A stretch of 64,000 nucleotides of DNA from an uncultured Bacilli bacterium (GTDB taxonomy: Bacteria; Bacillota_I; Bacilli_A; RF39; UBA660), in NCBI GenBank assembly GCA_934155005.1, contig CAKPGR010000003.1:13011-77010 (forward strand). The letters run 5' to 3'. Of this stretch, positions 1,346-14,711 are shown piece after piece (positions within the stretch are counted from its first letter, which is position 1; each line of letters starts with the position of its first letter). Made by a program: the position numbers and the translations under genes. The notes under the pieces were generated by a model that was not told the origin of the DNA, searched no databases, and worked only from the letters and a program-made list of their open reading frames with translations.

Positions 1346-1374
1346 TTGACATGAAAATTAAATTGTTTTATAAT
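1346..1374 (+). promoter_or_regulatory. Candidate sigma-A promoter for gatCAB (TTGACA - 17 nt - TATAAT)
   Basis: Perfect -35 and -10 hexamers with 17-nt spacer, 75 nt upstream of gatC. Confidence 0.5.
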
Positions 1375-3192: not shown

Positions 3193-4653
3193 ATGGAAAA
3201 ATATAAAGTATTAATCGGCCTTGAAATGCACTGTGAAATAAGTAATACAAATACAAAAGTTTTTTCAAGAGCTAGAAATAGTTATAGTACATTACCTAAC
3301 GGAAATATTAATCCTTTGGATATGGGATTTCCTGGAACACTTCCAGTTGTTAATAAAGAAGCTGTAAAAAAATCTCTTATGATGAGTCTAATTTTAAATT
3401 GTAAGCAACCAGAATATTTATATTTTGAAAGAAAAAATTATTATTATCCTGATTTACCAAAAGGATATCAAATTACTCAAGAAACAAAACCAGCGCCAAT
3501 TGGTATATATGGATATTTAAATTATGAATGTAATGGTGAAAATAAATTGGCTAGAATTAATAATCTTCACTTAGAAGAAGATTCAGCAAGTACAGATCAT
3601 TATGATGATTTTTCTTTAATTGACTATAACAGATCAGGAGTACCACTTTTAGAACTTGTAACAGAACCAGATTTTAGAAGCGCTGATGAAGCAGTTGCTT
3701 TTTTAGAAACGATGCGTTCTATTTATCAATATACTAATATAAGTGAAGCAGATAGTAAAAAAGGACAAATTAGATGTGATGTTAATGTTTCTATAATGGA
3801 TAGTGCTTTAGATGAAAAAGATCCTAATAATTGGGGAACTAAAGTTGAAATAAAAAATGTCAATTCATTTGGAGGCGTTAGAGAAGCTATTAATTCTGAG
3901 ATAAAAAGACAAATTGAATTAAAAGAAAATGGTACTTATGATGCTATGGAACAACAAACTAGAAGATATGATGAAGAAACAAATAGTACAATTTATATGA
4001 GAGGAAAAGTTGATGCCATAGACTATAAGTATTTTGTAGAACCAAACATTCCTAAAATAAAAATTGATCCAAATTGGGTTCAAAGTATAAAAAAAGAAAT
4101 TCCAGAACTTGCATATGATAGAAAGAAAAAATATATGAATGAATATAATTTGTCAAATTATGATGCAACAATATTAGTTAAAGATAAAAGTATTTCTGAT
4201 TATTTTGAAGAATGTATAAAATTTGGTTCAACACCAAAGGTGGCTTCGAATTGGATAACAAGTGTTATTTTAGGATTTATAAATAAATATGAAATTAAGA
4301 TTGATAAAATATTTACAACACCAAAAATGCTGACAGAATTAATCCTTTTAGTAGAAAATGGTACAATTTCTTCTAAACAAGCTAAATTAGTTTTAGATAA
4401 ATCATTGACAGAAAATAAAACTCCTACTGACATAGTCGATGAAGAAGGATTAAAACAAATAGAATCCGTTGATGAAATATTAAACGTAATAGTAGAAGTA
4501 TTAGATGAAAATGAAGATGCTATAAAAACATATAAAAATGGACGTACTAATATAGTTGATTATTTAGTTGGACAGGTTATGAAAAAAACAAAAGGAAAAG
4601 CTAATCCTTCGATAACAAGAAGTAAAATGATTGAAGAAATTGAAAAAAGATAG
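3193..4653 (+). CDS. gatB: Aspartyl/glutamyl-tRNA amidotransferase subunit B
   Basis: 486 aa; N-terminal GatB/GatE catalytic core motifs (VLIGLEMHCEI, YDPNGSQ-like) and C-terminal YqeY-like tail; 2 nt after the gatA stop. Confidence 0.95.
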   Translation: MEKYKVLIGLEMHCEISNTNTKVFSRARNSYSTLPNGNINPLDMGFPGTLPVVNKEAVKKSLMMSLILNCKQPEYLYFERKNYYYPDLPKGYQITQETKPAPIGIYGYLNYECNGENKLARINNLHLEEDSASTDHYDDFSLIDYNRSGVPLLELVTEPDFRSADEAVAFLETMRSIYQYTNISEADSKKGQIRCDVNVSIMDSALDEKDPNNWGTKVEIKNVNSFGGVREAINSEIKRQIELKENGTYDAMEQQTRRYDEETNSTIYMRGKVDAIDYKYFVEPNIPKIKIDPNWVQSIKKEIPELAYDRKKKYMNEYNLSNYDATILVKDKSISDYFEECIKFGSTPKVASNWITSVILGFINKYEIKIDKIFTTPKMLTELILLVENGTISSKQAKLVLDKSLTENKTPTDIVDEEGLKQIESVDEILNVIVEVLDENEDAIKTYKNGRTNIVDYLVGQVMKKTKGKANPSITRSKMIEEIEKR

Positions 4654-4670
4654 AACATTCTATCTTTTTT
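4648..4670 (+). terminator. Rho-independent terminator after gatB
   Basis: Stem agataga/tctatct overlapping the gatB stop codon, followed by TTTTT. Confidence 0.7.
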
Positions 4671-4760
4671 AGTTGTAAATAAATTACTTGATTTACGATG
4701 TAAAAGTATTACGCGTAATTTACGAAATGTAAAGGTATTGGCTAATTAGGCACTTTTGTC

Positions 4761-4790
4761 TTGACAATGAAACCGGGGGGGGGTTATAAT
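4761..4790 (+). promoter_or_regulatory. Sigma-A promoter of the T7SS-like locus with a G9 homopolymer in the spacer
   Basis: TTGACA 4761-4766, TATAAT 4785-4790, 18-nt spacer containing GGGGGGGGG (4775-4783); downstream AGGGAGG RBS and ATG 4838. Confidence 0.6.
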
Positions 4791-4837
4791 TTGAATATAG
4801 TAGGAGAACTACTTACTTATTAAAGGGAGGTAAAAAA

Positions 4838-5479
4838 ATGGCAATGACAGGATTTGATCCAAGTGTTGTTGGAACATCAATTAAAGCAGTAGATAATGCA
4901 TATAAAGAATTAGTTAACCAATTAGGTAATGAAATGCAAACAAAATTTGTAAATGGGATGGCTGATAAGTGGGCATGTGTTAATGCACAAACATTTTTTA
5001 GAGATGCTTTCAAACCATCTGTTGATGAATTAATTAATAATTCAAATAGAGTATTTGAAAGTGTTATTCAAGCTATGAATAGTGCTGGAAGAGCTTGGGC
5101 TAGTAGTACTGGTTCTTCATATTCTCAAGTTTCATTTTCAGTAATTGATAAAAAAATGGATATTGGAAATATTAGGGAAAATATTGGTGGAGTTAGAGGT
5201 ATTGATTTACAATCAACAAATTCAGTAATTAATCAATTACCTGTAATAGCTACATCTGCTGGACAAGCTTTAACTAGTGCTCAACAAGCAGTTCAAAATT
5301 GTGGTTTTATTGGTGGAAATCAAGCAAGTAATTTAATTTCATCACTTGGAACTATAAAATCAAGAATTAATTCGGCTGTAACAGATTTAACTAATGAAGC
5401 TAAAAGTGCTATGGAACAAACCGTTTCTACTTATACAGATACTGAAGGTCAAGTTTCAAAAGCTTTTCAAGCTGAATAA
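4838..5479 (+). CDS. 213-aa helical protein, first gene of the T7SS-like locus; candidate secreted substrate (divergent WXG100-superfamily-like, W-x-G degenerate to W-A-C)
   Basis: Position as first gene behind the locus promoter with very strong RBS. MAM... N-terminus and a KWACVNAQTFFRDAF block align loosely to the NWEGQAFSRFEEQF region of EsxA-type proteins. No TM segments. Confidence 0.35.
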   Translation: MAMTGFDPSVVGTSIKAVDNAYKELVNQLGNEMQTKFVNGMADKWACVNAQTFFRDAFKPSVDELINNSNRVFESVIQAMNSAGRAWASSTGSSYSQVSFSVIDKKMDIGNIRENIGGVRGIDLQSTNSVINQLPVIATSAGQALTSAQQAVQNCGFIGGNQASNLISSLGTIKSRINSAVTDLTNEAKSAMEQTVSTYTDTEGQVSKAFQAE

Positions 5480-5481
5480 TC

Positions 5482-5505
5482 TAAGAACTACCTTGGTAGT
5501 TCTTA
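5482..5505 (+). promoter_or_regulatory. Perfect 11-bp stem hairpin directly after the first T7SS gene (transcript stabiliser or partial terminator)
   Basis: taagaactacc/ggtagttctta inverted repeat; weak U-tract, so probably leaky. Confidence 0.5.
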
Positions 5506-5526
5506 AATTATATAAAGGGTGATTTT

Positions 5527-6087
5527 ATGAATATAAAAGTTAGTATATTAAAGACTGAATATGAAAAATTAAATAGATTAATAGAAGACTATAATTTTTC
5601 AATTCTAAATTTATATAATGAATTGTCTTTTTCAGAAAATTATTGGTATGATAAACACTCTTTAACTTTTTTTGACAATGTAAAAGTGGAAAAAAGAAAA
5701 AATTTAAATATGATTTCAGAATTAAATAATATAAAGGATATTTTTGGGTTACTTTTAAACGAATATAGTCAAATTGGTAATAATATTAGTTGCGTTATAG
5801 AAAATAAAAATATGGTTTTAAATCATATTGATGACTATATCAATAGAATTAGAGAAATTATTAACTTATATAATAGATTAAATTTATCTTTTAATCCTAA
5901 GGAAGCTAGTTATTTATATAATCATAAAAATATATTAGAAAATAATTATAGTAATATGCAAAGCATAAGAAACAATGTTAAATATTATTTTGAAAGAATA
6001 GAGAATATTGAACGAGAAGTAAATTTACAATTATCTAGAATTAATATTGAATATTTAAAAGAAACTAATTATAGCGGGGTATTATAA
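5527..6087 (+). CDS. Hypothetical 186-aa soluble helical protein (T7SS locus)
   Basis: Good RBS (AAAGGGTGA); no TM segments; Asn/Ile-rich helical pattern; translationally coupled to the next gene (ATAATG overlap). Confidence 0.5.
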   Translation: MNIKVSILKTEYEKLNRLIEDYNFSILNLYNELSFSENYWYDKHSLTFFDNVKVEKRKNLNMISELNNIKDIFGLLLNEYSQIGNNISCVIENKNMVLNHIDDYINRIREIINLYNRLNLSFNPKEASYLYNHKNILENNYSNMQSIRNNVKYYFERIENIEREVNLQLSRINIEYLKETNYSGVL

Positions 6088-6383
6088 TGAAAAGTATTTT
6101 AAATGAAGAAAATTTAAGACAAAGTATTGAAAAAATTCATATATATCAAAATGATGAAAATAATCAACTATCGAATATTAAAAATATTATGGATGGTATT
6201 GGATATTTTTATTTGTCACAAAATACAAGAAAAATAGATGAAATTAATTTAAATATGAGTAAAAAAATTACAACTATCAAAAATATACATTATAACAATA
6301 TTTATGTTTTAAAGCATAATATATTTAAATATCAAAATATTAAAATACAAGTTGAAAGTAAATTTAACAATATAGTGGGGTAG
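6087..6383 (+). CDS. Hypothetical 98-aa helical protein, WXG100-sized (T7SS locus)
   Basis: Start overlaps the previous stop; RBS AGCGGGGTA; about 100 aa helical, no W-x-G. Confidence 0.45.
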   Translation: MKSILNEENLRQSIEKIHIYQNDENNQLSNIKNIMDGIGYFYLSQNTRKIDEINLNMSKKITTIKNIHYNNIYVLKHNIFKYQNIKIQVESKFNNIVG

Positions 6384-6386
6384 CAT

Positions 6387-6701
6387 ATGAAAAAAGTAAA
6401 AAAGAAAAAGTATATTTCAAAAACTGTGTCTAAAACAAAATATAATATATCAACACCTACAAAAAGCATTAATTATGACAACTATAACAAATTAGCTGTT
6501 GATTTAAACTATATAAGAGTTAAATTTAATGAATTGAATAATAAATATCCAGAAGTTATAAATAATTTAAAGGCTTCAATTTTTATTGATAATCATACAA
6601 TAAATGAAGATAATTTAAATTATATAAATAATGACAATATAAAGATAACTAATGAATTAACAAATATAGTTATTCCATCTATTAAAAATAAAATATATTA
6701 A
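6387..6701 (+). CDS. Hypothetical 104-aa Lys/Asn-rich protein (T7SS locus)
   Basis: RBS AGTGGGGTA similar to that of the preceding gene; no TM. Confidence 0.45.
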   Translation: MKKVKKKKYISKTVSKTKYNISTPTKSINYDNYNKLAVDLNYIRVKFNELNNKYPEVINNLKASIFIDNHTINEDNLNYINNDNIKITNELTNIVIPSIKNKIY

Positions 6702-6759
6702 AAAATTTTAAATTTATTATAAATATTGTTTTTAATTGGAAATAGAAAGGGTGGTAATT

Positions 6760-9700
6760 GTGATAATTTATTTATATTTAGAAGATAAACTATTAACTTT
6801 TAGATTACCTAATCAAATATTAGGAAGTTATTCTTTTGATGAATATGATGAAGAAGAAGATAAACTAATCAATATAGATGCTAAAGATAATAATTGGATT
6901 TTATATTCAACTAAAAATTCACAAATTTTAAATGGAAATAATATTATTCAAAATATTGTTTTAAAGCCTGATAATTTTTATGTTCTAAAAAGAAATAATA
7001 AAAACTATTTGATTTATACAACAAGTAGTTTTAATAATAACAATACACTTTATAAATTTGATGAAAAATTGAATTTGATTGTAGGGAATAGTAATGAATG
7101 TAACATAAATTATCAAATAGGTTTATTAAACGACTGTTTAATAAAAATACACTATGTGAATAATGTTTTAGTCCTAGAAAAAACAGGAAATAGATTAATT
7201 TATATCAATAAAAATGCCTTTAATTTAGCTTCTGTGAGACTTAATTGCGGTACAGAAATTGATATTTATGGTCTTAGAATATATATATTTAATAATATGG
7301 TTTTAATAAACAATCCGGCAAATAGAGTAAAAATAAATGTTCAAGCTTGTTTCTTAACTAATTATTTTATGCCAGAGTTTCAAGAACCTAAAAATATAGA
7401 AATAAAAGATATTGATTTATATAATAAAGATGATTATTTTTTAAAGTCTCCTAGAATTAGAAGATTGATAGAAACAAAAAATATAAAATTAACGTCACCT
7501 CCAAAGACAGAAGAAGAAAAAGATATGCCTTTAATTTTAACCTTAGGACCAATGTTTACTATGGGTATTATCTCCGTTGTTACACTAATAAGTAGTATAT
7601 CAAAAATAATTTCAAAAGAAGCTACTATCGCGGAGTCAATTACATCATTAATTACAGCAGGTGCTATGTTATTATCTATGTTACTTTGGCCCCTGTTAAC
7701 AAATTTTTATAATAAAAAAATTAAATCTAAAAAGTTAAAAGAATCAGTAGATAAATATGAAACATACTTAGAAGAAAAAAGAAAAAGTTTTGAAAAAGAA
7801 GAAAAAATTCAAAGAGATATTTTAAATGAAAATTTACTTTCAACAGAGGAATGTTTCAATATTATAAAAAATAAAAATATTAATTTTTGGAATAAAAGAA
7901 TTGATCAAAATGATTTTTTGAATGTTAGAATTGGTAAAGGTAATCAACTTTTAGATATTAAACTTGATTATCAAGAAGATGATTTTATTTTAGAAAATAA
8001 CACGCTTAGAGAAAAAATAGATAAAATGATTGAAGAATTTAAATATATTGAAAATGTTCCAATAGGTTATTCATTTTACGATAATCCTATAACAGCTATT
8101 ATGGGAAATAGAAATAAATGTATGTCTTTTGTGGATAATTTATTATTACAACTATTATCTTTTTACACATATGAAGACTTAAAAATTGTTTTGTTTACAG
8201 ATTCATTTAAAAAAGATAGATGGGAATATATAAAATATTTAAATCACAATTTTGATAATGAAAGAGATTTTAGATTCTTTTCATCAGACTATGAATCGGC
8301 AAAAACAATAATGGAATATTTAACTTTTGAACTAAATAATAGACTTAGTGTTGAAGGCGCTACATTATATAAGCCACATTATTTCATAGTTGTTGATGGT
8401 TATGATCGTGTAAAACAATTTGATTTTATAAAACAATTAACAGAAACAGATAAAAATCTAGGATTTACTTTGGTAATTATTGAACAAAAAATAGGTAATT
8501 TACCAAGTAAATGTAGTAACTTTATAACTATTGGTCAAAAAACATCAGGACTACTTAAAAACTCATACGAAAAACAAGAAAAAATAGATTTCATAGATGA
8601 AGTAAATAACACCTTTAATATGTTAGATATATCAAAATATTTAGCTAATATTCCAATTGAATTTGAAGAAGGAATTAAACAGTTACCAAATGCTATATCA
8701 TTTTTAGAAATGGAGAAAGTTGGTAAAGTTGAACAATTGAATATACTAAACCGTTGGAATACCAATGACGCTACATCATCACTAAAGGCAGAAGTAGGTG
8801 TGGATGAAAATAATGAATTGATATATCTTGACTTGCATGAAAAATTTCATGGCCCACATGGTTTGATAGCAGGTATGACAGGATCAGGTAAATCAGAATT
8901 TATTATTACTTATATTTTATCTTTAGCTATAAATTATAGTCCTGATGATGTTGAATTTATATTGATAGATTATAAAGGTGGTGGTTTAGCTTTTGCATTT
9001 GAAAATAAAACTACTGGTATGTGTTTACCACATTTAGCTGGGACTATTACAAACTTAGATAAAGCTGAAATGGATAGAACATTAGTAAGTATTGATAGTG
9101 AAATAAAAAGAAGACAAAAAGTATTTAATGATGCTAGAGATAAATTAGGTGAAAGTACAATTGATATATATAAATATCAAAGATTTTATAAAGAAGGTAA
9201 ATTGGATTTACCAGTGCCACATTTATTTATTATTTGTGATGAATTTGCCGAACTAAAAACACAACAACCTGATTTTATGGATAATTTAATTAGTGTAGCT
9301 CGTATTGGTAGATCACTTGGAGTGCATTTGATTTTAGCCACTCAAAAACCAAGTGGTGTTGTTAATGATCAAATTTGGTCAAATACTAAATTTAGAGTTT
9401 GTCTAAAAGTTCAAGATGAATCAGATAGTAAAGAAATGTTAAAAAGACCAGAAGCTGCTAGTTTAAAACAAACAGGTAGATTTTATTTACAAGTTGGATA
9501 TGATGAATTATTCTTATTAGGACAATCAGGGTGGTGTGGCGCTAAATATTACCCATCCGATAAAATAGTAAAGCAAGTTGATAAAAGTATTAATTTTATT
9601 AATGATTGTGGTAATATTATCAGAAGTGCTGAGGCTGGTAGTAATCAAGTTGTTCAAAGTAATGGTGAACAATTATCAGCTATTGTTAATAATATAATTG

Positions 9701-11313
9701 AAGTATCTAATATTACTAATAAAAAAGCTACTAAATTATGGCTTGAAAATATACCTGAGATTATTATTGCTGATGATTTAGAAAAGAAATACAATGTAAA
9801 TTATGAAAGATATAATCCAACAGCTATAATTGGAGAATATGATGCACCTGAAAATCAAGAACAAGGTGTTGTAACTTATAATTTGCTTTCTAATGGTAAT
9901 ACTGTAATTTATGGTATGGATGGTTCCGAAAGAGAGTCATTAATTAATACAATAATTTATTCATCTACTAAAAATTTTAGTGCTGATGAAATAAATTACT
10001 ATATTGTTGATTATGGATCAGAATCATTTAGAAAATATTCAAAATTACCTCATTTAGGTGGAATAGTATTTGCATCAGAAGATGAAAAATATCATAATTT
10101 ATTTAAATTGATAAGAGAAGAATTACAAAAAAGAAAAAAATTATTTGCTGATTTTGGTGGTGAATATACTAACTTTATCCAAAATAGTGAAACTAAATTA
10201 CCAATATATACAATAATACTAAATAACTATGATTCAATTTATGATAGTAATCCTGAAATATATGATGAACTTCCTGATCTTATGAGAGATTCAGAAAGAT
10301 ATGGAATTATCTTTATTATTACTTGTAATGCTGTTAATTCTGTTCAAACTAAATTAACGCAAAATATTAATAATTCATATGCTTTAAAATTAAAAGATTC
10401 ATCTGATTATAGTATGGTATTTGGTAAGAATACAAAAATAATACCAAGAAATATTAATGGTAGAGGATTAGTTATGTTGGATAATATTCACGAATTTCAA
10501 ACTGCTAGCATAGTAAATAAAGACATGGATTTAAATAAATTTATTAATGATTTCATAAATAATGAGAGAATTAAAAATAAAAACAGTATTAATAAAATAC
10601 CTACATTACCAGATATTGTTAGATATAATGATATTTCTAATTATATAAGGGGATTAAATTGTATTCCTATTGGTATCGAAAAAAATGAATTAAACGTTAG
10701 CTTAGTTGATTACACATCTAATATTGGTAATATTATTACTTCAAATAAACTTGTAAATATGGAAAAATTTGTTAAAAGTCTTTTAAATGTTTTCCACAAT
10801 ATAAATAATTTTGACACAATTATTTTTGATGTAAGTAATAGTTTAAAATTAAATAATCAAAATTATCCTAATTATTTTGTAAAAGATGTTGATAAAATGA
10901 TGAATGTTGTAGTTGATTATGTGGAAAAAGAAATTAATAGCGGATCTAGCAAAGAAGGCGTTATTGTTATTTATGGATTAGATAAATTTATGACTAAGCT
11001 ACAAGATAAATCTTTATTAGATAAATTACTTGAAACAGTTAAAAATTATGAACATATGAGTGTGATTATAATTGAAAATGTTTTAAAAATTAAAAAATAT
11101 AATTTTGATACTTGGTTTTCAACATATTTTAATGTTAATGATGGTATATGGATTGGAAGAGGAATAGCTGATCAAAATTTACTTCATTTAGCTTCAATAA
11201 CAAAAGACATGACAGTTGATATTAAAAATGACATGGGATATTATGTCAGCGAAGGAGTAGGCGTTAAAGTTAGATTTATAGATTTTATAACGGAGGATAA
11301 CAATGAAAAATAA
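6760..11313 (+). CDS. essC: Type VII secretion FtsK/SpoIIIE-family ATPase EssC/YukB-like (N-terminal FHA-like region, 2 TM helices, three P-loop domains)
   Basis: About 1517 aa from GTG 6760 (RBS AAAGGGTGG; the track ORF starts at an upstream TTG). TM pair around PLILTLGPMFTMGIISVV...AGAMLLSMLLWPLL. Walker A LIAGMTGSGKSEF in domain 1 (about nt 8875), degenerate IYGMDGSERES in domain 2, and a third NTPase-like domain. Confidence 0.85.
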   Translation: MIIYLYLEDKLLTFRLPNQILGSYSFDEYDEEEDKLINIDAKDNNWILYSTKNSQILNGNNIIQNIVLKPDNFYVLKRNNKNYLIYTTSSFNNNNTLYKFDEKLNLIVGNSNECNINYQIGLLNDCLIKIHYVNNVLVLEKTGNRLIYINKNAFNLASVRLNCGTEIDIYGLRIYIFNNMVLINNPANRVKINVQACFLTNYFMPEFQEPKNIEIKDIDLYNKDDYFLKSPRIRRLIETKNIKLTSPPKTEEEKDMPLILTLGPMFTMGIISVVTLISSISKIISKEATIAESITSLITAGAMLLSMLLWPLLTNFYNKKIKSKKLKESVDKYETYLEEKRKSFEKEEKIQRDILNENLLSTEECFNIIKNKNINFWNKRIDQNDFLNVRIGKGNQLLDIKLDYQEDDFILENNTLREKIDKMIEEFKYIENVPIGYSFYDNPITAIMGNRNKCMSFVDNLLLQLLSFYTYEDLKIVLFTDSFKKDRWEYIKYLNHNFDNERDFRFFSSDYESAKTIMEYLTFELNNRLSVEGATLYKPHYFIVVDGYDRVKQFDFIKQLTETDKNLGFTLVIIEQKIGNLPSKCSNFITIGQKTSGLLKNSYEKQEKIDFIDEVNNTFNMLDISKYLANIPIEFEEGIKQLPNAISFLEMEKVGKVEQLNILNRWNTNDATSSLKAEVGVDENNELIYLDLHEKFHGPHGLIAGMTGSGKSEFIITYILSLAINYSPDDVEFILIDYKGGGLAFAFENKTTGMCLPHLAGTITNLDKAEMDRTLVSIDSEIKRRQKVFNDARDKLGESTIDIYKYQRFYKEGKLDLPVPHLFIICDEFAELKTQQPDFMDNLISVARIGRSLGVHLILATQKPSGVVNDQIWSNTKFRVCLKVQDESDSKEMLKRPEAASLKQTGRFYLQVGYDELFLLGQSGWCGAKYYPSDKIVKQVDKSINFINDCGNIIRSAEAGSNQVVQSNGEQLSAIVNNIIEVSNITNKKATKLWLENIPEIIIADDLEKKYNVNYERYNPTAIIGEYDAPENQEQGVVTYNLLSNGNTVIYGMDGSERESLINTIIYSSTKNFSADEINYYIVDYGSESFRKYSKLPHLGGIVFASEDEKYHNLFKLIREELQKRKKLFADFGGEYTNFIQNSETKLPIYTIILNNYDSIYDSNPEIYDELPDLMRDSERYGIIFIITCNAVNSVQTKLTQNINNSYALKLKDSSDYSMVFGKNTKIIPRNINGRGLVMLDNIHEFQTASIVNKDMDLNKFINDFINNERIKNKNSINKIPTLPDIVRYNDISNYIRGLNCIPIGIEKNELNVSLVDYTSNIGNIITSNKLVNMEKFVKSLLNVFHNINNFDTIIFDVSNSLKLNNQNYPNYFVKDVDKMMNVVVDYVEKEINSGSSKEGVIVIYGLDKFMTKLQDKSLLDKLLETVKNYEHMSVIIIENVLKIKKYNFDTWFSTYFNVNDGIWIGRGIADQNLLHLASITKDMTVDIKNDMGYYVSEGVGVKVRFIDFITEDNNEK

Positions 11314-11566
11314 AGTTTTAGTAAAAGTAATGATGCCAGAAATGGATTTAACATTTGATATTTTTATTCCAGTTAATGAATTAGTTTGGAAAATAAAAAA
11401 ATTGATAATTAAATGTGTTTCAGATATTACCTGTTATCCATTAGATATAAAAGAAGAATATTATTTAGTAAATAAAAGTAATGGTAATTTTTATAATAAT
11501 AATGATGTTGTTATAAATACAGATATTAGAAATAGTACCGAATTAATATTAGTGTCAAAAGTATAA
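11303..11566 (+). CDS. esaB: Small ubiquitin-like (beta-grasp) protein, YukD/EsaB-like
   Basis: 87 aa, overlaps the essC stop by 11 nt; size, alternating beta-strand pattern and position next to essC fit the YukD/EsaB family. Confidence 0.45.
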   Translation: MKNKVLVKVMMPEMDLTFDIFIPVNELVWKIKKLIIKCVSDITCYPLDIKEEYYLVNKSNGNFYNNNDVVINTDIRNSTELILVSKV

Positions 11567-11595
11567 AAAATATTATATAGAAGAGGAGAAATTTT

Positions 11596-11934
11596 ATGAC
11601 TTATGAAAAATTTTTACCAATAGGAACTGTTGTTATATTGAAAGGAGGTTCTAAAAGGTGTATGATTACCGGTTTTTGCGTAACTGGTGATAAAGATGAA
11701 AACATGTATGATTATTGCGGTGTTTTATATCCAGAAGGAGTTTTATCATCTAATCAAACTTTGATGTTTAATCATAATCAAATAGATAAACTTTATCATT
11801 TAGGTTTTATTGATGATGAGGAAAAACAATTTAAATTGAAATTAAATGAAATTATAAATAATACTAAGAGTGATATTTCAAATAATAATCAACAAATAAA
11901 TAATATAACAAATCAATCTAATAATATAAATTAA
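11596..11934 (+). CDS. DUF4176-like protein (T7SS-associated family)
   Basis: N-terminus MTYEKFLPIGTVVILKGGSKRCMITGF matches the LPIGSVV-LK-GG...MI-G signature I associate with DUF4176; Asn/Gln-rich tail. Confidence 0.45.
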   Translation: MTYEKFLPIGTVVILKGGSKRCMITGFCVTGDKDENMYDYCGVLYPEGVLSSNQTLMFNHNQIDKLYHLGFIDDEEKQFKLKLNEIINNTKSDISNNNQQINNITNQSNNIN

Positions 11935-11978
11935 GAAAATATCATTGATTTATAATAAAATAGAAAAGGAAGTGAGTT

Positions 11979-14432
11979 ATGTCTGATGTAAGTAAGATAT
12001 CAGGTAATATAACACCAAATTTGAACAATTTTGGTAATATAGTTAAAAAGTCAATATCTAATAGTGTTACAGGCTTACAAGGCATGCCTCAAGACCAAGT
12101 AACTTCAACAGTGGATTTGTCATCTTTTGTAGATGTTAAAGAAAATATTACTGATGCATTTCAAAAATTCTCTGTTTCTTATGATGAGACGGCTACTAAA
12201 ATAGCTGATAAGGCAGAAAGTAAAATAGGTGAAATGCTTAGAAAACTGGATTCTTATCAAAAAGAAGCTAATGATTGGTGGAACAATGAAGCAAAGCCAT
12301 TCTTTGATAAAGCCGCAAAAAATATTGAAAAGGCATACATAGAGTCAGCTGCTATTCAAACTAGAGTTGATAGTACAGCAGCGACAGCAGTATTATCAGT
12401 TGGTGAAGGTATTTTTAAAGTGGGAGAGTGGGTTGTAGATGGAGGCGCTATAGTTGCAACAGCATGTGATTCCCTTCAAACCTTGGCTATTGATTTAGGA
12501 AAATACGTTGGATGTAAAGTAACTAATCAAGAGTTTGAATCTGAAACAGCTAAAATGTGGAATAATACAAAAGATTTTGTTTCAAATGACTTTGTTGGTG
12601 GAGCATTTGATAAATTTTATGATAATACAAAAGTTGGAAATTATTTAAAGAAAAGTTCCTATGCTTTTGATAATACGCGTGAATTTGGTAAAGGATTTGG
12701 GGAAGCTATTGGTGTAATAGCTATATCTGCTTTAACATTTGGAGCAGGTGGTGCAGCAATAGGAGGTGCAGGTGCAGCTGGATCTGCTGGTGTTTTTGGA
12801 AGTAGTGCAGCGCAACTTGGAGTAACAGCCGGTGCAGTAGGATTTGGTAAAGGATCAGAAAAAGCATGGTCTGATGGTGCTGGTATAGCTGAGGGATTAG
12901 CTACTGGTGCAGCTACTGGTGCTTGGGAAGGATTTCAATGGTTTATTGGTGGTAAAATTGGTGGCTCTAACATTGCTGGTGAGTCTCATAAAGTATTAAA
13001 TAGTTTATCAAGAATTGTTTTAGATGGTATAGATGGTGGTGTGGAAGGATTCACACAACCAGTTATTAATTCAATATATCAAAAAGGATATTATGATGAA
13101 AATGATATTTATGTAGAATTTGATGAAGAAGATAATTATGTTGACAAAGTAAAAGAATTATATGATGATAATGGTGGATGGAATAGTGTTCGTCAAGGAT
13201 TTATAATGGGATCTGTTATGTCTGCACTTGGTGAAGTATCAGGTGGAGTCAAACAACTTAAAAATGAAGGTAAAACAAAACCTAATAAAATTGATAATGA
13301 TGTAAAAATAAAATCAGTTGATAGTGGTCAAAATAAAAATACAATAACATTTGAAGAATATCAAAATATGAAAAAAGAAGTTGATGTTAAATCTTTACAA
13401 GAAAGACTTGATAAATTAAGAAAAATAATTGATACTGATGAATATAGAAGGTATACTGAAAGAAATAAACAACATGAAGCTCAAGTTTTAAGACCTGATT
13501 TTGACAATATAGATAAAGAAATAGCTTCAATTGAGACCAAATTAGCGAGTAATCCTATTTCTAAAAAAATAGAAAAAACATTAAAAGATGAAATCAATTC
13601 TTTGATAAATAAAACTGATGATGTTGAAACAAAAGCTAGAAAATTATATGTTGAATTGAATAAAAGAGTTTCCTATGATTTTAATTATATTAAGGGTAAT
13701 AAGGAAGTACAACAAGAACTTTTAAATAGAAAAGTTACATTTGATAATATGAAAAATAACGAGGTTGTATGTAAGGGTTGGTCAGATTTATTTAATGAAC
13801 TTTTAAAAGATAATGGTATTGATTCTAAAATCGTTTCTACATCTAAAAAATCGCATTATTGGGTTGAAATTAATTTAGAAGATAGTATAATAATTGCTGA
13901 TGCAACAGATGCTTTAGGTATTGGTGGACCGGATTTAAGTAATTGCAAGAATGGATTTTCAACATTGGGGTTTGTTAAGACACATAAAGGTATGTCAAAT
14001 ACAAGATTAAAAAATATGTATGATAATAATCCAGGAGTTGAAGAGGCGGTTAAGAGCCAATGGAAAAAAGTTGATAGTAAAATTGAATATAATAATAATG
14101 GGGCTTATTTAGAAGACATTGTTGAAAAATCAAGAGAATTATTTGGAAAAAATAATTCAAACAATGATACTAGTTTATTTAAACTAGATATTCCAGATAA
14201 ATCAGATGGTTATAGCTTATTTGGTTATTTGAACAAGATGAAAGAAATTACTGGAAATAGTACTGCAAATATAAATTATGGATTTTTCAAAAATGGTAAT
14301 AATTACGAGTTTACAACAATACTTACCGAAAATAATAATTATATGGTATGTAATAATTCAATTGGAAAGAAAATATTTGATAATTTTATAGATTTTGATA
14401 ATTTTCTTCATTCAAATAATATTTCAAGATGA
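11979..14432 (+). CDS. Large T7SS-type polymorphic toxin candidate: N-terminal helical domain, Gly/Ala-rich glycine-zipper segment, C-terminal transglutaminase-like cysteine protease domain
   Basis: 817 aa. Gly-zipper GAGGAAIGGAGAAGSAGVFGSSAAQLGVTAGAVGFGKG at about nt 12700-12990. C-terminal VVCKGWSDLFNELLKDNGIDSKIVS...KSHYWVEINLED...IIIADATDA matches the transglutaminase core pattern C-x-x-[WFY]...G-I...H-x-W-V-E...D-x-T. Confidence 0.6.
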   Translation: MSDVSKISGNITPNLNNFGNIVKKSISNSVTGLQGMPQDQVTSTVDLSSFVDVKENITDAFQKFSVSYDETATKIADKAESKIGEMLRKLDSYQKEANDWWNNEAKPFFDKAAKNIEKAYIESAAIQTRVDSTAATAVLSVGEGIFKVGEWVVDGGAIVATACDSLQTLAIDLGKYVGCKVTNQEFESETAKMWNNTKDFVSNDFVGGAFDKFYDNTKVGNYLKKSSYAFDNTREFGKGFGEAIGVIAISALTFGAGGAAIGGAGAAGSAGVFGSSAAQLGVTAGAVGFGKGSEKAWSDGAGIAEGLATGAATGAWEGFQWFIGGKIGGSNIAGESHKVLNSLSRIVLDGIDGGVEGFTQPVINSIYQKGYYDENDIYVEFDEEDNYVDKVKELYDDNGGWNSVRQGFIMGSVMSALGEVSGGVKQLKNEGKTKPNKIDNDVKIKSVDSGQNKNTITFEEYQNMKKEVDVKSLQERLDKLRKIIDTDEYRRYTERNKQHEAQVLRPDFDNIDKEIASIETKLASNPISKKIEKTLKDEINSLINKTDDVETKARKLYVELNKRVSYDFNYIKGNKEVQQELLNRKVTFDNMKNNEVVCKGWSDLFNELLKDNGIDSKIVSTSKKSHYWVEINLEDSIIIADATDALGIGGPDLSNCKNGFSTLGFVKTHKGMSNTRLKNMYDNNPGVEEAVKSQWKKVDSKIEYNNNGAYLEDIVEKSRELFGKNNSNNDTSLFKLDIPDKSDGYSLFGYLNKMKEITGNSTANINYGFFKNGNNYEFTTILTENNNYMVCNNSIGKKIFDNFIDFDNFLHSNNISR

Positions 14433-14450
14433 TGATAGGGATGATAATTT

Positions 14451-14711
14451 ATGGATAAAATAATTGAACTTTTAGAGCGTAAAAAAGGCAAAATAAATAC
14501 AGATTTAGATTTAGAAAAATATAATCATATAAAAGAAATTATTAAACATGAAGATATATTTTTTTATCTTGATATGTCAACAGTACTTGGGATTTTAGAA
14601 TTTTTAGATGTAGAACCTGATGAAAGATTAAAGTTATATTATTCTTTAACTTCAATGGAAAATTATGAAAAAAATATTCCAAATGTTAGAATTATTAATG
14701 GAAAAAAATAG
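14451..14711 (+). CDS. Small 86-aa protein immediately downstream of the toxin; candidate immunity protein
   Basis: Position only; no TM; acidic. Confidence 0.3.
   Translation: MDKIIELLERKKGKINTDLDLEKYNHIKEIIKHEDIFFYLDMSTVLGILEFLDVEPDERLKLYYSLTSMENYEKNIPNVRIINGKK

Follow-up and report, generated by a model that had tools for sequence, protein, structure and literature searches.

The window analyzed here, a 64-kb stretch of DNA with a GC content of 24.6% (slightly lower than the roughly 26% estimated in a first-pass annotation), carries a block of co-oriented genes on the plus strand at 4838–14711, within which intergenic gaps do not exceed 47 nt and no convincing terminator was found. The next genes are on the minus strand. 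The block opens with a gene for a 213-aa protein (4838–5479), whose ATG at 4838 is preceded at a distance of 7 nt by the plus-strand ribosome-binding site GGGAGG (4825–4830). Three small genes without family assignment follow (186, 98, and 104 aa; 5527–6701, plus strand), and then essC (6736–11313, plus strand), which encodes the FtsK/SpoIIIE-type ATPase of a type VIIb secretion system (T7SSb; NCBIfam TIGR03928, T7_EssCb_Firm, 961 bits against a cut-off of 778; Pfam FtsK_SpoIIIE). Two further plus-strand genes (11303–11934) encode an 87-aa protein and a 112-aa DUF4176 protein (9.7e-28, above cut-off), a family found in T7SS loci (PMC9900821). The 87-aa protein has weak ubiquitin-like similarity, possibly of the YukD/EsaB kind, in the form of a sub-threshold match to UBL_UBAC1 (8e-5). 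Downstream of the DUF4176 gene, the block ends with a pair of plus-strand genes (11979–14711) for an 817-aa protein (11979–14432), in which residues 544–634 form a transglutaminase-like core (Transglut_core, 24.8 bits, cut-off 23), and an 86-aa protein. The former is a candidate secreted effector, and the latter might be its immunity or chaperone partner. None of the operon proteins had a Pfam or NCBIfam match to WXG100 (EsxA-like) proteins, and none passed a curated cut-off for EsaA, EssA, EssB, or EsaB/YukD. Judged from its predicted ATPase, the locus is of the T7SSb type, but an atypical or minimal one, and it may represent a reduced or divergent form of that type.

The 213-aa protein was predicted by AlphaFold to be a four-helix bundle made of two helical hairpins (pLDDT 89, pTM 0.84), and neither a sequence-profile search nor a Foldseek search with this confident model gave a match in the PDB. 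Its family comprises approximately 90 homologues or clusters that are confined to uncultured low-GC Bacilli, represented by gut-type metagenome-assembled genomes; the record labels of these homologues include Bacilli, Tenericutes, Mycoplasmatota, Candidatus Faecimonas, and Clostridium sp. CAG:417, and one closed genome carrying a homologue is 1.26 Mb in size. The protein is a candidate T7SS substrate or component and might be a fused hairpin pair.

Upstream of the block lies gatB (3193–4653, plus strand; Pfam GatB_N, 3.7e-95, and GatB_Yqey, 4.7e-44), the last gene of a gatCAB operon. A perfect TTGACA-17-TATAAT promoter at 1346–1374 (plus strand), approximately 75 nt upstream of a 98-aa ORF (1448–1744) that corresponds to a weak GatC match in L113, is probably the promoter of that operon. 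Overlapping the gatB stop codon is a plus-strand stem-loop with a U-run (4638–4674), built on a 13-nt perfect inverted repeat (4643–4655/4658–4670). Its predicted RNA fold has a free energy of −11.9 kcal/mol (z = −4.3), with none of 200 shuffled sequences equally good, and it is probably an intrinsic terminator that would shield the T7SS promoter from upstream transcription. Farther downstream, at 4691–4739 on the plus strand, are two direct repeats, ATTTACGA(A)ATGTAAA(A/G)GTATT, spaced 27–29 nt apart (repeat families D1 and D2), with a palindrome, ATTACGCGTAAT, between them at 4708–4719. These repeats, lying upstream of the −35 box, are possible binding sites for a regulator. In many related species (L011–L013, L024–L027, L037, and L041), a TGTAAA-N5-TGTAAA arrangement (approximately 11 bp spacing) adjoins the −35 box, and we take such TGTAAA direct repeats to resemble the binding sites of OmpR/WalR-family response regulators.

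The promoter of interest comprises two hexamers read directly from the plus strand, TTGACA at 4761–4766 and TATAAT at 4785–4790, separated by a spacer (4767–4784) that is 18 nt long here and 19 or 20 nt long in other assemblies. The spacer begins with ATGAAACC at 4767–4774, continues with a run of nine Gs (GGGGGGGGG, 4775–4783), which is the length-variable element (G9, G10, or G11 across assemblies), and ends with a single T at 4784 that separates the run from the −10 box; the whole promoter stretch is cTTGACAatgaaaccGGGGGGGGGtTATAATttgaatatagtagg. This reading confirmed the coordinates in the first-pass annotation, which had placed a G9 tract and an 18-nt spacer between perfect TTGACA and TATAAT boxes. 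That annotation had also described the tract as the sole long G/C homopolymer of the window and as improbable by chance, and both descriptions were borne out. There is no other G or C run of at least 6 in the 64 kb (four G5 runs, none of G6–G8, and one G9; C runs reach a maximum of 4), and a first-order Markov model of the window gave an expectation of 0.006 runs of at least G9 per 64 kb. Perfect TTGACA-N15–19-TATAAT pairs number three in the window when both strands are counted, and the pair at 4761–4790 is the single 12/12 promoter match within 3500–8500. Because such runs and such promoter pairs are both rare, a G9 tract in a perfect-hexamer spacer has a chance expectation of approximately 1e-6, and the observation is confirmed to be far beyond chance. 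Moreover, with a terminator before it and an operon without sizeable gaps behind it, the G-tract promoter would serve the whole T7SS block, and control of the entire operon by 4761–4790 is plausible from this arrangement.

Just downstream, at the predicted 5′ end of the transcript, lies an inverted repeat, AGTAG-gagaa-CTACT (4799–4813, plus strand), which is weak as an RNA hairpin. Manual and regular-expression inspection located such a repeat a few bases downstream of the −10 box in approximately 28 of 34 related loci, with the −10 box 6–9 nt before it in related species, and in relatives L011–L047 it lies approximately 33–50 nt upstream of the start codon. Both arms change together among species (GATAG..CTATC, GATAA..TTATC, AGTAG..CTACT). 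RNAalifold gave no consensus structure for this conserved repeat, and no Rfam family matched in the window or the leader. The element could be a 5′-terminal RNA stem-loop or a DNA operator.

Contigs of the same species were retrieved by exact-protein look-ups in ENA and Logan assemblies. A G tract occupies the same place in the promoter in 11 further assemblies from different projects, so it does not stem from faulty assembly of a single record, and the 213-aa protein is identical or nearly so among the same-species assemblies. Three arrangements, referred to here as types A, B, and C, were found at one chromosomal site directly downstream of gatB, with the module TTGACA-N8-Gn-T-TATAAT common to all of them. 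In type A, that of the window, gatB is followed by the promoter and the 213-aa gene; the tract is G9 in the window and L001 and G10 in L010, with no G11. In type B, gatB is followed by a divergent gene for a 518-aa sortase with a long N-terminal extension, then by the same promoter, a gene for a 332-aa protein, and the 213-aa gene; here all three lengths occur (G9 in L003 and L006; G10 in L002, L004, and L009; G11 in L005). Type C is arranged as type B, but its first gene is diverged (338 aa), and its one tract is G9 (L111), with no G10 or G11. In a further type B contig, L110, one end is error-laden, with several mismatches and an interrupted 10-nt tract (GGTGGGGGGG). The B-type allele reads TTGACAAAAAAACC-Gn-TTATAATTT and the A-type allele continues with GAATATAGTAG; the 74 nt upstream of the tract are just 61% identical between A and B (ungapped). 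A scan of JGI metagenomes for TTGACAANNAAACC-N6–16-TTATAATTT gave 45 matches, none with poly-G and all of them unrelated promoters.

Most other strains carry a sortase/surface-protein cassette between gatB and the T7SS genes (e.g., L002:231–2937, L004:730–1728, and L111:46–1062), at a site that corresponds to 4654–4837 of the window. The 332-aa protein carries a signal peptide, and both it and its diverged 338-aa counterpart are secreted proteins with an NPKTG wall-sorting signal at the end. The gene that directly follows the G-tract promoter in most strains is one for a sortase-anchored surface protein and not a T7SS gene. The window's own gene arrangement agrees with the gene order of related species. 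In B-type strains, the leader inverted repeat goes with the 213-aa gene and not with the promoter, and a weak promoter-like site (9/12) lies upstream of that gene, a possible weak internal promoter. Two other candidate switches in B-type strains were considered and rejected. The split of the 332-aa protein into 98 and 207 aa, taken as a potential second slippage switch, is due to a single C-to-T nonsense SNP without any indel, present in three of six assemblies (L002, L003, and L006) approximately 325 nt downstream of the G tract (alignment column 326); the split gene is a polymorphic pseudogene. A divergent promoter of the hifA/hifB type serving the sortase was likewise discarded, as approximately 108 nt separate the sortase start codon from the tract, and in B-type sequences no promoter-like site on the minus strand overlaps the tract.

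The first-pass annotation had interpreted the tract as a candidate phase-variable (contingency) promoter and had proposed a comparison of loci across strains. In this comparison, the tract was not invariant: it was G9, G10, or G11 between near-identical strains, which supports the proposed interpretation. In an alignment of eight B-type assemblies over 6.6 kb, the tract was the only genuine indel (the other was a scaffold N-gap), and the A-type alignment (7.2 kb) contained only two, one being the tract itself and the other a change of 2 bp within the terminator. None of the 12 A/T runs of at least 7 in the same region varied. Two contigs from different archives, L004 (G10) and L005 (G11), had no SNPs over 5,118 shared bases, and L006 (G9) differed from each of them by one SNP over 4,760 bases. 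All three lengths are therefore represented among haplotypes that are otherwise virtually the same, and the tract mutates more quickly than point substitutions build up. Because the samples behind the window and L001 may be related, the number of independent observations is somewhat below 12.

Such differences might also be produced by homopolymer errors in sequencing or assembly of a tract that is in fact fixed, without biological length variation. Illumina accuracy falls in long G runs, some of the contigs have low coverage (L010, 2.8), and, besides the interrupted tract at the error-laden end of L110, several contigs are broken there. Five of them, from different samples, have an end within approximately 40 nt of the tract (L006, L007, L008, L110, and L111); the tract appears to interrupt short-read assembly, which is suggestive of mixed tract lengths or of read failure. 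However, 10 assemblies from several projects and assemblers have a clean G9, G10, or G11 with perfectly matching flanks, and there is no other indel across 6.6 kb in eight assemblies. As assemblers keep the majority k-mer path, a difference in consensus length implies a different dominant length. Given the clean flanks and the recovery of these lengths by several assemblers and projects, sequencing error at poly-G is unlikely to account on its own for the length differences, and we consider a fixed tract quite improbable.

Comparison with other species suggests that the G tract may be recent. No G or C run of at least 6 was present upstream of the gene in 32 related species (GTDB-representative loci; 40%–64% protein identity), nor in three closer relatives (66%–89% identity), and the three nearest relatives have ordinary spacers of 17–18 nt. 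Many of the 32 species have a promoter-like −35/−10 pair with a 17–18-nt spacer, and the −10 box is often of the extended TGn form. In the nearest relative, L043 (89% protein identity), the orthologous element is TTGACAAAAAAAATAGCCTTTGCTATACT, a TTGACA-17-TATACT promoter within a stretch that reads TTGACAAAAAAAATAGCCTTTGCTATACTTTAATCATAGTAG. TTGACA is kept in the A- and B-type alleles and in L043, and L043 shares with the same-species alleles the −35 box, the A-run, the −10 position, and the downstream inverted repeat. Because the sequences align in these elements, the G-tract promoter can be regarded as orthologous to the tract-free promoters of the relatives. The alignment suggests that the tract is a lineage-specific gain in a real promoter, the 3′ portion of the usual 17-nt spacer having been replaced by CC-Gn-T in one species only. 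Its retention in three diverged alleles, despite a G-eroding base composition (approximately 25% GC), argues for maintenance of the tract by selection.

From these comparisons, we consider it likely that the G tract is a repeat prone to slippage within a sigma-A/sigma-70-type promoter that drives the T7SSb operon, which would thus have a contingency promoter like those of porA and tp0126. At G9 in the window and G9–G11 elsewhere, the tract is long enough to slip (at least approximately 7 G/C). In this model, 4761–4790 would be the promoter in use for the operon, and slipped-strand mispairing during replication would add or remove Gs and thereby alter the −35/−10 spacing to 17 nt with G8, 18 nt with G9, 19 nt with G10, and 20 nt with G11. 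Because the tract abuts the −10 side and the −10-proximal context stays constant, only the −35 box would shift relative to the −10 box. Sigma-70/sigma-A promoters work best with a spacer of 17 nt. Promoter strength would be expected to step down from near-optimal at 17–18 nt to poor or off at 19–20 nt, with G8 or G9 being on, G10 weak, and G11 essentially off. Frequent and reversible switching within a population would then divide the population into cells that make the secretion system and the surface protein and cells that do not, the sortase-anchored protein of B- and C-type strains presumably being under the same switch. G8, the allele with the 17-nt spacer, was never seen in any of the assemblies, and the observed spacers of 18–20 nt are nominally sub-optimal; hence, either the locus is mostly low or off, or its relation between length and activity departs from the textbook one. 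There is a hint that an activator acting at the upstream repeats changes the spacing optimum.

The same observations bear on the alternative that the length variation is real and yet has no regulatory consequence, either because the tract is a neutral hot spot or because an activator or another promoter dominates transcription of the operon. The missing G8 allele would fit this alternative, as would the weak promoter-like site before the 213-aa gene in B-type strains, and activator control is suggested by the direct repeats and the palindrome that precede the −35 box, together with the TGTAAA repeats of the relatives. Nonetheless, a neutral run of G9–G11 should decay fast at 25% GC, yet it is kept in three diverged alleles, and it lies exactly between the boxes of the one consensus promoter that the intergenic region contains, a promoter that is orthologous to 17-nt promoters in relatives. 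Changes in spacing, moreover, alter activity in every promoter of this kind studied (PMC2791445, PMC7864442). We regard a lack of regulatory consequence as unlikely. A different role, in which the tract acts through protein binding or an unusual DNA structure and its length variation is incidental, has some precedent. For example, the poly-G of tprL in Treponema pallidum extends over the −10 region, and spacing is not considered to be its mode of action (PMC7864442), and the poly-C of opc may work via a regulator (PMC7864442). The tract described here, however, lies wholly within the spacer between two perfect hexamers. A single G run is unable to form an intramolecular quadruplex, and other G-rich elements are absent nearby, so that we give an action independent of spacing very little credence.

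If the contingency-promoter interpretation is true, stochastic expression, on/off or graded, of a module for interbacterial competition and surface-antigen display would represent bet-hedging by a gut commensal. Expression of the module would be costly or dangerous under some conditions (immune, phage, energy) and valuable under others (competition). Knowledge of phase-variable promoters comes mainly from pathogens of mucosal surfaces, for example Neisseria, Haemophilus, Treponema, and mycoplasmas, and, to our knowledge, the regulation of T7SSb in commensals is largely unknown. Because the state of such a switch is written in the DNA, tract length is readable from existing metagenomes, and it could be correlated with host, community, and metatranscriptome data for an organism that has not yet been cultured. 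The locus would also capture the birth of a contingency locus, in which the ordinary 17-nt spacer seen in a sister species was replaced by a G tract.

Promoters of comparable architecture have been described in several bacteria. In Neisseria meningitidis, porA (poly-G) and fetA and opc (poly-C) have an unstable homopolymer between the −35 and −10 boxes, in which slipped-strand changes in spacing lead to high, medium, or no transcription (PMC2791445). The promoter predicted here is alike in having a homopolymer between these boxes. The porA tract range in the work of van der Ende from 1995 reportedly matches 9–11 G, and G11 is said to give a 17-nt spacer in porA, with shorter tracts weakening the promoter. 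Here, unlike in porA, G9–G11 give 18–20 nt and fall on the long side of the optimum. The settings also differ, as the Neisseria examples concern a Gram-negative pathogen and an outer-membrane protein. Here, the cargo is a T7SSb operon, accompanied or not by a gene for a sortase-anchored protein depending on the strain, and the host is an uncultured gut bacterium of low GC content and Gram-positive type. Similarly, tp0126 of T. pallidum, an OmpW homologue, has a poly-G tract between its boxes, with transcription optimal at 17 nt and a tract length that varies within and between isolates (PMC7864442). The likeness lies in the poly-G between the −35 and −10 boxes. T. pallidum, however, is a spirochaete with 53% GC and many poly-G tracts, while the present tract is the sole such run in 64 kb of 25% GC. 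Further examples are vlp of Mycoplasma hyorhinis (poly-A in the promoter region) and vmm of Mycoplasma mycoides (a dinucleotide repeat in the spacer), in which repeat length switches transcription of surface proteins on and off (PMC10502178). Their hosts are low-GC and Mollicutes-related, and relatives of the window organism are labelled Tenericutes or Mycoplasmatota in public records. These systems nonetheless differ in having A or dinucleotide repeats and lipoprotein products, without a secretion system.

Type VII secretion has also been linked to homopolymers. In Mycobacterium tuberculosis, frequent and reversible homopolymer indels in the espR 5′ untranslated region and upstream of espACD tune type VII secretion through ESX-1 (PMC11898584, PMC10334774), which resembles the present case in linking such secretion to a homopolymer tract in regulatory DNA. 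However, ESX-1 is a T7SSa of an actinobacterium; the espR tract acts post-transcriptionally on EspR and the other tract on espACD transcription, and neither lies in the core-promoter spacer of an operon for the secretion machinery, as the tract is predicted to do here. In group B Streptococcus, a slippage-prone G tract in essC differs in length between strains and was proposed to be regulatory (PMC9900821). Both cases combine a Firmicute T7SSb locus with a length-variable G tract, but that of group B Streptococcus lies within the essC coding sequence, where it causes frameshift and truncation and where regulation is hypothesized, and not in a promoter spacer. The literature searched contained no example of a repeat in the core promoter spacer of a T7SSb operon and nothing on T7SS in this lineage. 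The mechanism of a contingency promoter is hence already known, while the T7SSb cargo and the host lineage appear to be new. We lean, with some reservation, towards the view that this is the first T7SSb operon with a slipped-strand core promoter, one that is coupled to a surface protein in most strains and originated recently in just one species of an uncultured lineage of gut Bacilli with small genomes.
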